From Mustelus asterias (Eukaryota), in contig NW_027590388.1 in assembly GCF_964213995.1 (NCBI RefSeq), positions 1-64,000 on the forward strand: a stretch of DNA of 64,000 bases. The letters run 5' to 3'. The notes under the pieces are model-generated. The model was not told the DNA's origin and did no database searches. It was given only the letters and a program-made list of their open reading frames with translations. A program made the translations under genes and the position numbers. Below are positions 7,314-56,269 of the stretch, one piece after another. Numbering within the stretch: the first letter of the stretch is position 1; every line of letters starts with the position of its first letter.

Positions 7314-8100
7314 TTACTGGGGGTGTTGGGGCCTCCAGCGGGTGTTTGTGAATCCTCCCCGCCCACCTCCCAGGGTTTCCTTCCTTCCTTCCCAGAGATC
7401 AGAGTCCTCATTGATTTGAGGCCAAAGTGTAACCTCTTATTTATTGTCCCCCTCCCCCATCCTCTGATGTGAACCATCCTCCAGTGGCTGAGCCAGGATG
7501 GGGCCGTTAACCTGGGCCTGTTCCCGGGAGGGAGGGAGGGAGGGAGAAGCCCCGCAGCTGCAAACCAGGGAGCTGACAATGATTCTGAAGGGTTTGCGGA
7601 TCCACAAAGTGTTTCCAAATCCTCCCAGCCACCGCCTAACGCTGACTCCGCTTCTCCGGGACAAACAAGCGCCAAGGACAGCAATGACAGTGCGCATGCT
7701 CCACATCACAATGCCCGGGGACTGATTGACGGCAGCTCCGGACCAATAGGAAGAGGGGGCGGGGCTGGAGGACCGAGCGGGAGCGGCTGGTCCTCCAACC
7801 AATCGGAGTGAATGAGGGGCGGGACCTGAAGCATGCGCAGTGCGGGTAATGGCGACGGATGGCCGGTTTTATCGTGGAAGCGAGATCAATACGAGGTAGA
7901 GGGCGGCGCGCGGGGAATGATAAATGTGGCGGGTGGGTGGAGAGGCTTTGTAAACATGTTGTTCAAACCCAAACCCCGGAAATGAACTTCCCGGTTCCCC
8001 CGCTTTGTACCAAATGGAGCGGCAGCTTGTAGTGTTAGACCCGGGCTGACTGCCGCCATTGAGGCTGCATGTGGGAGGCCGGCAGGGATTGTGATCGGAG
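7314..8100. promoter_or_regulatory. Bidirectional CpG-island promoter (type 1) between ZNF A (-) and ZNF B (+)
   Basis: NRF1-like GCGCATG/CATGCGC on both flanks, two CCAAT boxes, two GGGGCGGG boxes; near-identical copies at 41806-42535 and, inverted, 50883-51510. Confidence 0.75.
7849..7895 (+). other. Putative first exon of ZNF B with upstream ORF start MATDGRFYRGSEINT(R), phase-2 donor
   Basis: gtaATGGCG start; 47 nt to ag|gtagag; homologous exons at 36072-36029, 42324-42374 and 50983-50928. Confidence 0.55.
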
Positions 8101-33533: not shown

Positions 33534-34376
33534 TCACTTGTGAACTTGTTGGTGTTTCAGCAGGGTGGATGAATCACAGAATCCCTTCCCACACTGAGAG
33601 CAGATGAACAGTCTCTCCCCGGTGTGAACTCGCTGGTGTGATTGCAGGGTGGATAACCGAGTGAATCTCTTCCCACACACGGGGCAGGTGAACGGCCTCT
33701 CTCCAGAGTGAACTCGCTGGTGTCTCCGCAGATTAGATAACTGAGTGAATCCCTTTCCACACTGAGAGCAGGTGAATGGCTTCTCCCCAGTGTGAACTCG
33801 CTGGTGTGTCTGCAGGTTTGATAAATGAATGAATCCCTTCCCACACTGAAAGCAACTGTATGGCCTCTCCCCAGTGTGATTGCGCTGGTGTGTCTGCAGG
33901 CTGTACAATTGAGTGAATCCCTTCCCACACTGAGAGCAGGTGAATGGTCTCTCCCCAGTGTGAACTCGCTGGTGTGCCCGCAGCTGAGATAACTGAGTGA
34001 ATCTTTTCCCACATGCAGAGCAGCCGAATGGCCTCTCTCCTGTGTGAACTCGCTGGTGTTTCTGTAGGTTGGATGACTTACTGAATCCCTTCCCACACTG
34101 AGAGCAGGTGAATGGCCTCTCCCCAGTGTGAACTCGCTGGTGTGTCTGCAGGCTTGATATCTGAGTAAATCCCTTCCCACACTGACAGCAGGTGAATGCA
34201 CTCTCACCAGTGTGAACTTGCTGGTGTCTCTGCAGAGTGGATGAATCAATGAATCCCTTCCCACACACCCAGCAGGTGAACGGCCTCTCCCCAGTGTGGC
34301 TGTGCCGATGAGCTTCCAGTAGAGAGGGCGCTTTGTATCTCTTCCCACAGTCCTCACATTTCCATGGTTTTTCCAT
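33534..34376 (-). CDS. ZNF copy E: 10 fingers, 280 aa
   Basis: Uninterrupted ORF MEKPWKC...QQVHK; upstream acceptor (34702), mini-exon (34936-34871), exon 1 (36072-36029) and promoter all present. Confidence 0.9.
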
Positions 34377-35094
34377 ATTTTCAGTCTCCTTGTATCATTT
34401 GAAACCTTGTCCACACAGAGAACACGGTATGGTCTCTCCCTGCTGTGAATGCTGCAATGTATTTTCAGGCTGTGTCACTGGTTAAAGCTCTTTCCACTGT
34501 CAGTGCACTGGAACACTCTCACTCAGGTGTGTGTTTGTGTCCCGGTGTTTTTCCAGTCACACTGCTGCTTAAAATCTTGCAGTCAAACATTTCTCCTTCC
34601 CATTCAGAGGCTGAGGATATTTAGTTTCCAAGGAATCGAGTGACTCTGTCAGATCGAGATGTGATCGTTAAGATTTATCGGTGTGATTCCTCTTCTAATA
34701 TCCTGTAAAAACAATTTACAAAATTCATCACAGTCAGTACAGGATAGAAATTCAGAACAGACAATTCTAGTTTCTGTGGAACATTCTTTCCACTCTCATT
34801 CCCCAAAAGCTGTAAATCTCCATCCCACACACTCTCCCTCCATTCTCACTCTGCTGTATCTAATATTCACCCTCCCAATTCTCCTGAAGGTGCTGATTGA
34901 GGCTGATTGACAGATCCATGCTCACTGCTTCCTGTCCTGGACACACACAGCTGAAAATCTCCATGCAGACTGCCAGTCTAACAGAAATATAGCGACATTC
35001 TCGACTAAAAATGTTTCAAATGGATTGATTCGGTTAGTGAAGATACAGGGGGGTTGTGACTGATGATATTGAACTTGCTGCCAACGTGGGTGAT

Positions 35095-35460
35095 CATAGA
35101 GTTTTACAGCATGGAAAGAGGCCCTTCGGCCCATGGTGTTTGTGCCGGCCATCAAGCACCGTTCTATTCTAATCCCATTTTCTACACTTGGTGCGTAACC
35201 TTACGTGCTATGGCATTTCAAGAGCTTACCTAAATTCTTCTTAAATGTTATGATGATTCCCACCTCTACCACCCTTTCATGCAGTGAGTTCCAGATTCCC
35301 ACCACCATCTGAGTGAAAAAGCTTTCCCTCACATCTTCTATAATCCTCCTGCCCCTGAACTTAAATCCAGGCTCCTGGTTATTGACCTCTCTACTAAAGA
35401 GAAAAGTTCCTTTCTATCCCCCCTATCTGTGCCCCTCAGAATTTTATACATCTCAATGTT
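35095..35460 (-). mobile_element. CR1 3' fragment, paralogous to 17625-17992
   Basis: Reverse-complement match including the flank to the mini-exon. Confidence 0.8.
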
Positions 35461-35819
35461 AGGCTGGATAACTTGGGGTTGTTCTCCTTGGAGCAAAGTA
35501 GATTGATTGAGGTGTACAAGGGTACATGGAGGTGTCAAAGTTTTCATGCTCTGTTTACACGTGTACAAGCTCTGACTATGGGTTATCCAGTCTCAAAACG
35601 TTGGTTCTATTCTCTCTCCACGGATGATGTCAGATCTGCTGAGATTTTCCAGCATTTATTGTTTTTATTTCCCTTTCAATTTCCTTCTCTGTCAGCGCTC
35701 TGCCTCATCAATAAGACATTGGGACTCAGAGGGTTGATGCAGTTTGATGGACAAGTTGTCTCCATTCTGAACACTGGGGAACAAGCGCCTCCCGCTGATT
35801 GACAACATTGCCCTCTACA

Positions 35820-36220
35820 AACATGTCGGCCGCACATGCGCACTGCTGCATATTGCCCCAATAAAGATGGCGAACGTTAACCCGAAACGAACATGAGGAG
35901 CTGCAGCCCCGCTCGGTACAAACTGGGTCCGGGAGGCTCTCTTCCGCATTTTGCGACTCTCACAACATGCTTACACAGCGTTTCCACCCACCTGGACGAT
36001 CCATTGCTCTCTCCGTACCGCCAATCACCTCGAACAGATTTCCGGCCCAAAATAAATGTTTTCCATCGCCATTACTCACACTCGAGTCAAAGTTGGCCCC
36101 GCCCCTCGTTCGCTCCTATTGGTTGGAGGACCGACCGCTCCAGATCGGTCCTCCAGCACTGCCCCCTCTTCCCATTGGTCCGCGCTGCCGTCAATCAGCC
36201 GGACATTGTGACGGTGACTT
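35820..36220 (-). promoter_or_regulatory. Diverged type-1 promoter and exon 1 of ZNF E (MAMENIYFGPEICS-R, 36072-36029)
   Basis: 36090-36215 aligns with 51005-51130 (GC boxes, two ATTGG); gtaATGGCG start and phase-2 ag|gtgatt donor. Confidence 0.7.
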
Positions 36221-37893
36221 GCTGTTTGTCCAATAATAATAGTGAGAGAGTCTCAGTGTAACAATGACACACACAGGCTCCAATACAATCAGAGTGGGGA
36301 TGGAGCACAGAGACAACACAGCAAAGCACTGACTTACTCTGAGTGTAACAAATACAATGTTTGTTCAAATAATAAGTCATGTTGCAGTATGTTAGTGAAC
36401 ACAGCATTAGATCCAATGTAATGATAATACAGTCAGTATCTAGTGCACCAGAACCAAAGTTTCGGCTTCATTTGATAGTGTGAGTGAGTCATGGTCTATT
36501 GATATAATGTATTTAAATTCCGGTGTGTGTTACTCTGCCCCACTGTCATTATCAGACAATAACCTATCTGTTATTCCAATTCTGCTGTATTTTACAACTG
36601 CAGCTCCTGGGGCTGATTGGAGTCTGGTATAAAAATCACAAAGGTCGGTTTCAGTGTCTCTGAGGTCATTTTAACTGCAGATAATCTGACATTAAGGGAG
36701 ACAAGAGGCCCAACAAACATTTGATTAAAATAGGAGGACAAAGTGTAAGGGAACAATGATATTTTAAGGTGTCTGTGTTATAGTGAGTGTCACTGGGAGG
36801 TGAGTGATAAAATACAAGTGGAAACATCATGACAGAGACACATGTGACTGACTCGGCCTGACTGAGAGCTGTTATACTCGAGGCGAGAATAATGAGGACA
36901 TGGGAAACTCCAGGGATTTCTGATATCTGAGGTGTGTCCGTTAGAGGAACTGAAAATAATCAGTTCCTCCTCATGGTTATCACCAGTTCGCAAGTTACAC
37001 AGACACACAGGAAAGAGATCTGATGCTCATCAAACACAATATTTTAATCTTCTGTTTGAGACACATTATGACCGAAAAGATCAAACATTAAAACCTTAGG
37101 AGAGAAACATTCAGAATGTCACAAAGATGAGTGAACTGTCCAATTAATCCCATTCACCATAACTCTGCCAATTTACCTTCTGCAAGTATTTATCCAATTC
37201 CCTTTGAAAGCTATTATTAAACCTGCTTCTAGCACGTGTCAATTTGTGCATTCCAGATCATATCAAGTTATTGTGCAAAAAATTCTCCTTATCACCCCCT
37301 TCAGTTCTGTTGTCAATTATATTAAATCTCTGTGTCCTCTGCTTACAGACCCTCCTGCACCGAGGAAATTGATTCTCTCCATCGACAAACCCTCCTGCTC
37401 CTGCGAGATAATTTCTCTCCATTGACACTATCATAAATCATTTGTCATTTTAAACACCTCTATTAAATCTCCCCATCACATTCCCTAATCTAAGATGGAT
37501 AACGCATGTTTTTCCTGCCCTGAAGAATTACATGGACTCAAAATGTTAACTCTCTGAACAGATGCCGCCGGACCTGCCGGGTTTTTCTGCTTTTCTCCCT
37601 GTTTTTCCCTCTATAATCAATCAGAAACTCTTCATGATTTTGAACATCTTGATCAAATAGGAACACACAGAGCCTGAGAGAGATACAGAGGAAAGGAGAG
37701 ACAGAAAGACTGAGAGAAAAATTGAGAAAGATTTTAAAAAGCAGAAAGATGACGCAATCAAAGATAAAAGCTGAGAAACAGAGGAAACAAGCAATACAGA
37801 GAGAATGATATAGAATTTAAGGGAGCAGGCTATCAGTTCCCAGCTATGGGGAGCAGAGTCGGCATCTCCACATCAGAGCAGAGGGAACTCAGT

Positions 37894-41805: not shown

Positions 41806-42535
41806 TACTGGGGGTGTTGGGGCCTCCAGCGGGTGTTTGTGAATCCTCCCCGCCCACCTCCCAGGGTTTCCTTCCTTCCCAGAGATCAGAGTCCTCATTG
41901 ATTTGAGGCCAAAGTGTAACCTCTTATTTATTGTCCCCCTCCCCCATCCTCTGATGTGAACCATCCTCCAGTGGCTGAGCCAGGATGGGGCCGTTAACCT
42001 GGGCCTGTTCCCGGGAGGGAGAAGCCCCGCAGCTGCAAACCAGGGAGCTGACAATGATTCTGAAGGGTTTGCGGATCCACAAAGTGTTTCCAAATCCTCC
42101 CAGCCACCGCCTAACGCTGACTCCGCTTCTCCGGGACAAACAAGCGCCAAGGACAGCAATGACACTGCGCATGCTCCACATCACAATGCCCGGGGGCTGA
42201 TTGACGGCAGCTCCGGGCCAATAGGATGAGGGGGCGGGGCTGGAGGACCGAGCTGGAGCGGCTGGACCTCCAACCAATCGGAGTGAATGAGGGGCGGGAC
42301 CTGAAGCATGCGCAGTGCGGGTAATGGCGACGGACAGACGGACAGTTTTAACCTGGAAGCGAGATCAATCCGAGGTAGAGGGCGGCGTGCGGGGAATGCT
42401 AAATGTGGCGGGTGGGTGGAGAGGCTTCATAAACATGTTGTTCCAACCCAAACCCCGGAAATGAACTTCCCGGTCCCCCCATTTGTACCAAATGGAGCAG
42501 CAGCTTGTAGTGTTAGACCCAGGCTGACTGCCGCC
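41806..42535. promoter_or_regulatory. Bidirectional type-1 promoter between ZNF F (-) and ZNF G (+)
   Basis: Near-identical to 7314-8057. Confidence 0.75.
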
Positions 42536-50029: not shown

Positions 50030-50882
50030 GTTAATTCCAGCATCAAAGTGGGAAGGGGGAGGAAGGTGAGCTGTTGCCTGCCTGCCTGCTGTCCGGCCTG
50101 CCTGCCTGCCTGTCGTCTGGCCTGCCTGCCGTCTGGCCTGCCTGTCTTCCGTCCGTCCGCCCACTGGAGGGTGCTCTCTCCCTGGAGGGAGAGAGGACAC
50201 GGAGTGACTTTCTTTCTTTTTTCTTTCCATCTATGGGAGGGAGGACTGCACGTTTCAACATCGAGGGACTGAGTGGTTGGGCTGGTGCCCTCATCATCAG
50301 AAGGTCGGTGCCTGAAAGGGATGGGGGGGTGAAGTAAATTCAGACTGTTTTTTCCATCTGGGGGGGGGGGCGGCGGTGAAGACACCCCGGACTTGAACTG
50401 TTTGCGCCCAAAAGGGCTGGAGGAGTAAAGTCCCCCACCCACTGCTGCTGCCCCCAACACCGGCGCCCCCAACACCGGCACCCCCTCCCCTCTTTCCCCC
50501 TGACTGGGGCACCGGCCCCCCTCCGTGCCTTGTCCCTCGTCCTCCCTCCTGCTCCTCCTCTCTCCTCTCTCGCTCCGGGGAGAGAGCACCTAGATCCCCA
50601 TCCACCTACCCTGCCCTCCCTTATTTTTCCCTCCTCTTATACGTCCTGCCGTGGCAGAGCCTTCTCGGCCCACCTATGCGGGCGTGGCGGCTGCCAGAGC
50701 CCCCGCCGCTCCCAAGGCCCTGCCACCTTTTTCGTTGCTCACGCGGCAGCTCGGGGTTAAGTGCTACGCCCACCCCGACATGTCCATCGAGGCCTGTGTC
50801 AAGGCAATGGCTGGGGTTGTCGGCCCCTCAGCCATTGTCGCGGCCTCTAAGATGTCCGGCCGGGCCGTATTCTTTTTGAAGG
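50030..50882 (+). mobile_element. L1/Tx1-clade element 5' UTR and ORF1 N-terminus, 3'-truncated
   Basis: PTYAGVAA...GVKCYAHPDMSIEACVKAMAGVVGPSAIVAASKMSGRAVFFLK resembles Tx1 ORF1 (from recall); (gcct)n in the UTR; abrupt fusion to the ZNF promoter at ~50883. Confidence 0.7.
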
Positions 50883-51510
50883 CCACCCACCCGCCACATT
50901 TATCATTCCCCGCGCGCCGCCCTCTACCTTGTATTGTTCTCGCTTCCAAGTTGAAACCGTCCGTCCGCCGCCGCCGCCGCCATTACCCGCACTGCGCATG
51001 CTTCAGGTCCCGCCCCTCATTCACTCCGATTGGTTGGAGGACCAGCCGCTCCCGCTCGGTCCTCCAGTCCCGCCCCCTCTTCCTATTGGTCCGGAGCTGG
51101 CGTCAATCAGCTCCCGGGCATTGTGATGTGGAGCATGCGCAGTGTCATTGCTGGCCTTGGCGCTTGTTTGTCCCGGAGAAGCGGAGTCAGCGTTCGGCGG
51201 TGGCTGGGAGGATTTGGAAACACTTTGTGGATCCGCAAACCCTTCAGAATCATTGTCAGCTCCCTGGTTTGCAGCTGCGGGGCTTCTCCCTCCCTCCCTC
51301 CCGGGAACAGGCCCAGGTTAGCGGCCCCATCCTGGCTCAGCCACTGGAGGATGGTTCACATCAGAGGATGGGGGAGGGGGACAATAAATAAGAGGTTACA
51401 CTTTGGCCTCAAATCAATGAGGGTTCTGATCTCTGGGAAGGAAGGAAACCCTGGGAGGTGGGCGGGAAGGATTCACAAACACCCGCTGGAGGCCCCAACA
51501 TCCCCAATAA
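50883..51510. promoter_or_regulatory. Type-1 bidirectional promoter of ZNF J (+); minus-strand exon MAAAAADGRFQLGSENNT-R at 50983-50928
   Basis: Reverse complement of 41806-42419. Confidence 0.75.
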
Positions 51511-55792: not shown

Positions 55793-56230
55793 ATGTATCT
55801 CCTGTGTGCTTTACTGATAACAATGACCACGCTGCCCGGTGAGTCTGAGCTCAGATCCTCAGTGTGTGTTTCATGGGTTATATTTGTTCACAGATTTCTC
55901 ACACATTCTACATTTTGTTGCAGGAATCAATGGCCAAGATTCAGTTTCCCAGGACCCGGCTGAATTAACGGTTCAGGAAGGATTGAACGTAATAGTGAAT
56001 TGTAATTACACAACAACGGATGCTTTTCCAAATCTCTTCTGGTACATCCAGTATCCCGGGGAAGCTCCGAGATATTTACTGCAGAAATATAGCACGGGGG
56101 GCGGAGAAAAGTCTCCAGATTTCCCTGACCGGTTTTCTGCTGATTTGGACAAGGACAAGAAAACAGTTCCTTTAAATATCACTGGGGTCCATGTCTCTGA
56201 CTCTGCCGTGTATCACTGTGCGCTGAGCCC
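55793..56230 (+). CDS. TRAV: T-cell receptor alpha(/delta)-type variable segment: leader exon 55793-55838, intron 55839-55923, V exon 55924-56230
   Basis: Leader MYLLCALLITMTTLPG with phase-1 GT..AG 85-nt intron; V domain with VNC, LFWYIQYPG, DSAVYHCALSP; no stops; followed by an RSS. Confidence 0.92.
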
Positions 56231-56269
56231 CACACTGTTACAAAGGCGCAGTGAGCCCGTACAAAAACC
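56231..56269 (+). other. Recombination signal sequence, 23-bp spacer
   Basis: CACACTG (56231-56237), 23 nt, perfect ACAAAAACC (56261-56269). Confidence 0.95.

Follow-up and report, generated by a model that had tools for sequence, protein, structure and literature searches.

What lies between the promoters and the fingers in a large family of shark zinc-finger genes, and does any of it encode a peptide that selection has kept? The question is raised by a stretch of 64,000 nucleotides from Mustelus asterias (64 kb, referred to here in its entirety as the window), which carries a tandem cluster of C2H2 zinc-finger genes interspersed with LINE fragments. An earlier note on this DNA had proposed that in one of these genes, the focal gene, a short exon 1, a 66-nt mini-exon and the start of the finger exon are spliced into a single conserved frame, the remnant of an ancestral N-terminal region that survives as a uORF or micropeptide ahead of the finger ORF. 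The features that bear on this proposal are collected in Table 1.

Table 1. Coordinates of the features discussed, with positions numbered from the first letter of the window unless a contig is named
Feature	Position	Strand	Remarks
Main ORF, focal gene	33534..34376	-	280 aa, 10 C2H2 fingers (10 PF00096 stretches)
Untranslated 5' part of finger exon	34377..34702	-	326 nt; decayed acidic spacer and 2-3 relic C2H2 fingers; three uATGs
Intron	34703..35991	-	1289 nt, GTGGGT...TTACAG; donor CAG/GTGGGT
66-nt "mini-exon" block	34871..34936	-	Very uniform; inclusion absent among listed joints
Exon 1, ATG1 to sequenced donor	35992..36072	-	81 nt in focal gene; 85 nt in most focal-type copies
uORF1, 15 aa (MAMENIYFGPEICSR, then stop)	36025..36072	-	Wholly within exon 1
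Promoter-like region, CpG-rich, TATA-less	36073..36290	-	CpG o/e 1.0 over 35850-36250
B-type exon 1, gene B	7849..7932	+	16-aa uORF, ends TAG; codon-8 stop absent
B-type exon 1, +4-nt class	42324..42411	+	Class accounts for 29 among 100 B matches listed
B-type exon 1 with GCG expansion	50891..50983	-	19-aa uORF ending TAG
Insertion-bearing B promoter	G000:C107 near 263340		
Insertion-bearing B promoter	G000:C71 near 15058330		

The focal gene has what is expected of a member of a tandem C2H2 cluster, namely a finger array, conserved linkers, a multigene neighborhood and purifying selection, and the nearest named relatives of its finger ORF are from sharks (five matches among seven candidates, four of them named). 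No effector domain was found in the ORF by Pfam, with KRAB, SCAN and others all absent among the 25 best of 32 families. Copies of the gene unit are numerous in the genome, with 881 first-look candidates for a mini-exon query and 1176 for a promoter query (40 scored each), which would put the family at several hundred and up to about 1,000 finger-only C2H2 genes. Five places including the window (G000:C356, C1203, C150, C96, and C119) are 99-100% identical over the promoter, exon 1 and mini-exon queries and may represent either a very recent segmental duplication or redundancy of the assembly.

Two further elements of the window deserve mention in their own right. An antigen-receptor-like V segment lies on the forward strand within the zinc-finger cluster (55925-56269; Pfam V-set, E 1e-17), followed by a recombination signal of heptamer, 23-nt spacer and nonamer (56231-56269); this segment may be of the T-cell-receptor kind. 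At 50594-50882 there is what is presumably a LINE ORF1-like fragment on the opposite strand, for which Pfam returned no family.

Selection on the finger protein itself is clear. The CDS is open over 117 codons in 61/64 copies, and across the first three fingers of 44 sequences dN/dS is 0.47 overall. Where the CDS was set beside the leader frame by frame, it has 0.39 in frame vs. 1.49 and 0.71 in the other two frames. The start ATG is kept in 62 of the 64 copies, every one with A at -3 and G at +4, while the median retention of a triplet is 0.66. Purifying selection acts from the Met of MEKPWKC onward. DNA-contact positions stand apart from the rest of the same 44 sequences (dN/dS 0.92 on and 0.38 off these positions), giving a hint that they may be under diversifying selection, as in other ZNF expansions. 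The focal start Met shares the A(-3)/G(+4) context and sits at the position of a linker glycine, which it would have replaced in a change from TGEKP to TMEKP.

How exon 1 is joined to the fingers was examined in the assembled contigs of four runs, mapped on 34330-36330 at 88% likeness, to which paralogs contribute. Among the 15 best-supported of 47 joints the dominant one connects 34701 with 35991 (cut +1, minus-strand GT..AG ends), at a depth of 359 in run X17 and 89 in run X18, both from one sample. This joint carries the end of exon 1 at 35992 straight to the finger exon at 34702 and skips the mini-exon. Its donor sits 37 nt past the one that had been proposed at 36029, and no joint at 36029, 34936 or 34871 occurs among the same 15, so the predicted junctions are unused there; minor isoforms using the mini-exon or the 36029 donor may exist. 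Pairing with U1, a rough guide based on the usual consensus, amounts to 8/9 at the sequenced donor, with 7 and 5 at the donor of the earlier note and 6 at that of the mini-exon. When 36072-36029 (44 nt), 34936-34871 (66 nt) and 34702 onward are joined in silico, the single frame of 45 aa that had been described does appear, however, it is not the frame produced by the sequenced joint.

The X17 and X18 runs are not on record as RNA, but they likely are RNA because of their depth pattern, their small sizes and the canonical ends of the intron. Summed contig depth reaches 657 and 1230 over 35938-36071, falls to 20-37 in the adjoining intron and is 43-57 upstream. X17 contigs also match 34511-34702 and 34347-34455 without differences, at depths near that of the joint, and contigs of X17, X1, and X4 cross the supposed mini-exon donor unspliced. 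A processed pseudogene was considered as the source of the joint and is unlikely, given that the genome, in an assembly that may be incomplete, yielded 0 copies in which the sequenced exon end is followed by G and a non-T base.

The proposed frame fares no better when exon 1 is followed across the genome. The lengths of 47, 56, and 51 nt reported for the other exon-1 copies of the window are correct (84, 93, and 88 nt to the GTGGGT donor, minus 37), but the conservation of phase drawn from them is not, as the statement that all are of phase 2 is true of three hand-picked copies only. Using the 36029-type donor, 71 of 82 focal-type copies (88 genome-wide pattern matches minus six of other promoter subtypes) are of phase 0 and 11 of phase 2, five of the latter being the focal group. 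The 44-nt length of the focal gene stems from a 1-nt deletion common to the five near-identical copies, the closest sisters being one base longer; the focal type also includes a -3 indel class. Of 297 B-type matches, the first 100 divide into about 62 of phase 2, 30 of phase 0 and 8 of phase 1; these phases were worked out from coordinates, which misplaces a few copies where indels lie downstream. Length varies largely within a 4-nt repeat. The 51-nt copy at 42324 had been set aside as the only shifted one, facing a truncated pseudogene; its length holds, but a shift of this kind is not confined to a pseudogene, since its class is common among the B matches listed. The copy at 50983 continues from 8 nt past its donor into unrelated sequence, the presumed LINE-like fragment at 50594-50882, as do other GCG-expanded copies seen in tiles. 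At the mini-exon block that comes next (46859) the acceptor reads TG in place of AG.

Stop codons tell a similar story. The GT at 36028 that was proposed as a donor is part of AGG-TGA, the in-frame stop of uORF1, and the uORFs at 7849 (16 aa) and 50983 (19 aa) likewise terminate within exon 1. In the 84-nt B class 17/21 copies stop after seven codons, gene B being one of only four of these 21 without the codon-8 stop, and genome-wide TRR occupies codon 8 in 147/368 B promoters, all 100 of those listed being stops. That three different stops occur at this codon was considered as a sign of stop-codon selection and set aside: a single transition turns TAA into either TAG or TGA, and some copies have CAA or TAT there. 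The frame of gene B is indeed open, as had been noted, and gives 63 aa in silico under the 36029-type donor. In 30 copies (12/32 B, 18/44 focal type) a finger-exon acceptor could be assigned to exon 1, and the proposed frame reaches the finger exon in six of these, gene B and the five near-identical focal copies, which amounts to effectively two events. Under the sequenced joint uORF1 spans 7-75 aa and is mostly short. In B exon 1 pN/pS is 0.99 (13 synonymous and 30 nonsynonymous variants in 32 copies), next to 0.96 and 1.41 in the other frames; since copies are related by descent, such variant and frame counts are not independent events. The predicted junctions are unused among the listed joints, lengths are not kept modulo 3 and substitutions look neutral, so that what the earlier note had named as refuting it is largely observed. 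A recent 1-nt deletion and a mis-called donor between them account for the 45-aa frame.

The mini-exon block itself remains peculiar. No coding signature was found in it: pN/pS in the proposed frame is 1.44 over 57 copies, with three stop-creating variants, and the acceptor AG is present in 37/53 aligned copies and lost in 16. It is without indel in 55 of the 57 copies, and its minority letters amount to 1.7% vs. 3.1% and 6.3% in intron 2. Together with about 80 nt of the following intron it forms the most uniform part of the unit, the leader and the finger CDS having about 15% minority letters. Contigs of two other organisms match the block at 99-100% and cross its supposed donor unspliced. 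At E up to 0.5 Rfam gave 0 matches over 34300-36400. The uniformity may stem from gene conversion, from the spread of a cassette or from a cis-element.

One part of the proposal that does survive is that an ancestral N-terminal region was cut off from the fingers. The leader within the finger exon is about 350 nt long across the family. Together the search loci, 600 kb of tiles and the window supplied 92 distinct finger-exon acceptors. An xEKPxKC start lies at most 700 nt from the acceptor in 65 of them and further off in five, with none in 22. The frame from acceptor to fingers is open in 0/65 leaders, the distance from acceptor to start is 0, 1, and 2 modulo 3 in 23, 20, and 22, and 51/65 leader indel events have lengths that 3 does not divide. 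With a profile built on 363 real fingers, finger-like pieces are recognized in the sense strand of 61/64 leaders and in the antisense strand of 0/64. Segments of the leader have dN/dS of 0.63-1.0, alike across frames. A word-based protein search of longer proteins with the 49-aa relic peptide, a weak search, gave one candidate and 0 matches, and Pfam found no domain in this peptide. A profile of six relic peptides matched 22 proteins, of which 16 were retrieved and 10 looked up; four long matches with short repeated hits may be low-complexity noise. Those that have a name are gene models predicted in Pristiophorus, Heterodontus, and Carcharodon, and their N-termini are unrelated. In a few of these shark models the relic is in frame with fingers, and two models (P0016 and P0005) keep TGE where the Mustelus family has TME. 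The relic is therefore an old one that sharks have in common, and, as judged from gene models and not from observed proteins, the linker glycine is probably where the present start arose. A 114-aa predicted protein of Carcharodon (P0010, XP_041031445.1) opens with MAVERGLF, which by eye resembles the focal-type exon-1 peptide, then passes through the relic fingers and stops short of the finger start.

If the peptide of exon 1 drifts, its beginning does not. ATGGCG follows the upstream 16-mer in 368/393 promoters while codons 3 onward drift, and the ATG is preceded by GTA in 44/44 focal-type copies and in all of 32 B copies except one with TTA. In three of the 44 focal-type copies the first ATG is lost and the second exon-1 ATG remains. 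Counting from ATG1, we take the promoter to contain CCAAT boxes at -106 and -50, reversed CCAAT at -162 and -212 and a GC box at -32; a presumed NRF1-like motif, GCATGCGC, is found in sister promoters and is deleted in the focal copy. Other promoter types of the family have what we read as a fuller motif, AAGATGGCGG. The invariant ATG with its GCG flank in one orientation resembles a TISU element, and the AAG upstream flank of that element is missing. A YY1-bound ATG element near transcription starts has been described, its ATG being the CDS start in 64% of human TISU genes and something other than the CDS start in 36%, and in human cells the element blocks leakage (PMC2518114, in excerpt). 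Promoter function would be the simplest reason for the conservation of ATGGCG, and its use as a translation start is possible. The B-type promoters at 7699/7849, 42174/42324, and 51133/50983 look bidirectional: NRF1-like motifs point in both directions, and each promoter is flanked on either side by finger genes. Separately, in two B-type promoters elsewhere in the genome (Table 1) about 90 nt have been inserted between the NRF1-like motif and the ATG, flanked by what looks like a short target duplication.

This leaves the matter of how ribosomes find the fingers. The leader defined by the sequenced joint has six uATGs with frames of 5-23 aa over the 407 nt from ATG1 to the main ATG, that is, AUG-initiated short frames upstream of the CDS in spliced RNA, with the presence of ATG1 and ATG2 in the mRNA depending on where transcription starts. 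The three exon-1 ATGs are G(-3)/G(+4) and strong under the classical rule; these contexts, together with the blocking of leakage by TISU in human cells, argue against simple leaky scanning. In zebrafish reporters, A at -3 activates initiation and U/G at -3/-2 repress it (PMC11685710, in excerpt), a rule that fits the GTA context of ATG1. Within the finger exon 55/64 leaders are without a strong-context uATG, and 22/64 have an out-of-frame uORF that overlaps the main ATG. New leader uATGs are neither favored nor purged, ATG ranking 43-46 of 64 triplets. An apparent depletion of leader uATGs (3.0 vs. 8.0 in shuffled sequence) was examined as a possible mark of selection and discarded, as finger-coding DNA is equally ATG-poor (3.0 vs. 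3.1 per 351 nt). The finger ORF is likely reached by a combination of leaky scanning and re-initiation after short uORFs, since it is under selection and the leader is in RNA; in this respect, too, the inference of the earlier note is supported. uORFs are ubiquitous across vertebrate mRNAs (PMC4890304, in excerpt), which makes scanning or re-initiation past them an ordinary mechanism, and zinc-finger mRNAs of zebrafish are under translational control (PMC11620358, in excerpt).

Taken together, we consider it probable that the focal gene is an effector-less, finger-only ZNF copy in which exon 1 is spliced straight to the finger exon, leaving a decayed leader of about 400 nt whose unconserved uORFs are scanned past or restarted after. 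Translation of the ancestral gene would have begun further upstream; its front end would have decayed, and the role of start would have passed to a Met in the place of the linker glycine. ATGGCG of exon 1 may have been kept as a YY1/TISU-like core-promoter element and not for the sake of a peptide. Translation of the fingers would proceed by leaky scanning past the uATGs with G(-3)/T(-2) and by re-initiation after the short uORFs, of which the focal uORF1 ends 359 nt before the main ATG, and the uORFs would be expected to damp output.

The other explanations differ in what they ask of the upstream frames. A micropeptide of 45 aa under selection, built from the 36029 donor, the mini-exon and the finger exon, can draw on the fact that its frame exists in silico in both the focal gene and gene B, agrees with the relic phase-2 entry frame of the finger exon, and passes through a mini-exon that almost never suffers an indel, with the majority of listed B copies of phase 2 by length. 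We nevertheless regard it as highly improbable, as the sequenced joint has another donor and skips the mini-exon, most paired copies break the frame, the bulk of the focal type is of phase 0, many B promoters have TRR at codon 8, pN/pS is 0.99 and 1.44 in exon 1 and the mini-exon, and the mini-exon acceptor is often lost. It is also unlikely, if less so, that a different spliced uORF is the selected one, with the focal gene as a frameshifted exception: the majority focal-type frame, read to the GTGGGT donor in phase 1, gives 29-30 aa, or 51-52 aa with the mini-exon. That frame is open through exon 1 in 39/44 copies, the -3 indel class included, 0/30 mini-exon variants create a stop in it, pN/pS is 0.61 in exon 1 and 0.76 in the mini-exon, and all 13 paired copies (13/13) give 51-52 aa with the mini-exon. 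That signal falls short of significance (p = 0.14), however, and is not specific to the frame, exon 1 having 0.54 in another one; only about 80 related copies have it, the B type lacks it, with the same ATG giving 7-75 aa, and the frameshifted focal group is itself present in five copies.

Two further possibilities concern the ATGs and not the peptides. The exon-1 ATG could be an efficient TISU-like start that throttles finger translation throughout the family, with only the start selected and the peptide free, which we hold to be possible though doubtful. Re-initiation reportedly favors short uORFs, which most uORF1 are. The proposal would also account for an ATGGCG kept in 368/393 promoters over drifting codons and for the second ATG that persists where the first is lost, and zinc-finger mRNAs are translationally controlled in zebrafish (PMC11620358, in excerpt). 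YY1 binding alone, however, predicts the same conservation, other promoter types have the presumably fuller AAGATGGCGG, and there is no selection for or against new leader uATGs. Somewhat more doubtful still is that the uATGs are mostly irrelevant because the mRNAs that are translated begin past them or have a different leader. The fall in X17 depth from 1230 (36005-36071) to 57 (36072-36138) is a weak hint, from contigs, that the 5' end may be near ATG1. On the other side, contigs that show no difference from the focal leader span 34511-34702 and 34347-34455 near joint depth, which places the exon-3 uATGs and the third exon-1 ATG in RNA.

What follows from this reading is firstly a correction. 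Rejecting the micropeptide removes a false lead, and the use for annotation and gene evolution remains: in other sharks the N-termini that gene predictors assemble from the relic vary, whereas the evidence puts the start at MEKPWKC in a family that is finger-only. A broader picture, to which we give only a slim chance, is of a shark family of up to about 1,000 genes whose start moved into the finger linker and whose ATGGCG was kept as a dual promoter and initiation element, such that a uORF free in sequence throttles every mRNA and re-initiation rescues the fingers, an arrangement that would have been maintained from before the two shark superorders split. If true, uORF throttling would be a case in which a whole zinc-finger family, expanded outside tetrapods and teleosts, is controlled at the level of translation, and with re-initiation it would amount to translational dosage control of DNA-binding proteins that lack effectors. 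A literature search with most subscription journals outside its reach found nothing on chondrichthyan uORFs or catshark zinc-finger clusters.

Comparison with known systems sets these genes in context. MZF1-uPEP is said to be a conserved-peptide uORF or micropeptide. Micropeptides of this type share with the shark frame a small ORF upstream of a zinc-finger CDS; the shark frame differs in that its exons are not joined as predicted among the best 15 of 47 joints, neither the peptide nor its frame or length is conserved, and frame-specific purifying selection is absent. KRAB-ZNFs and the cyprinid FiNZ-ZNFs (PMC10547256, in excerpt) are alike in their hundreds of clustered copies, in carrying 10 tandem fingers, joined by TGERP linkers, on a single exon and in the relaxed or diversifying evolution of DNA-contact residues (0.92 vs. 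0.38 in the focal family). The shark family differs in having no translated N-terminal effector, the region before the fingers being a frameshifted relic (0/65 open) and the Pfam families shown including none of this kind, FiNZ being without a model of its own. Loss of KRAB has been reported in cartilaginous fishes (PMC8455134, in excerpt). The TISU/YY1 element (PMC2518114, in excerpt) has the same invariant ATG and GCG in one orientation, downstream of CCAAT, GC-box and NRF1-like motifs, whereas the shark flank is GTA and not AAG and the element heads a uORF, with both YY1 binding and initiation being putative. Finally, uORF-bearing leaders of vertebrates (PMC4890304, in excerpt) likewise have several short AUG frames upstream of a main start in better context, where repression is expected from position and context and not from the peptide, but the shark leader is in addition a fossil of the gene's own former coding region, repeated family-wide.
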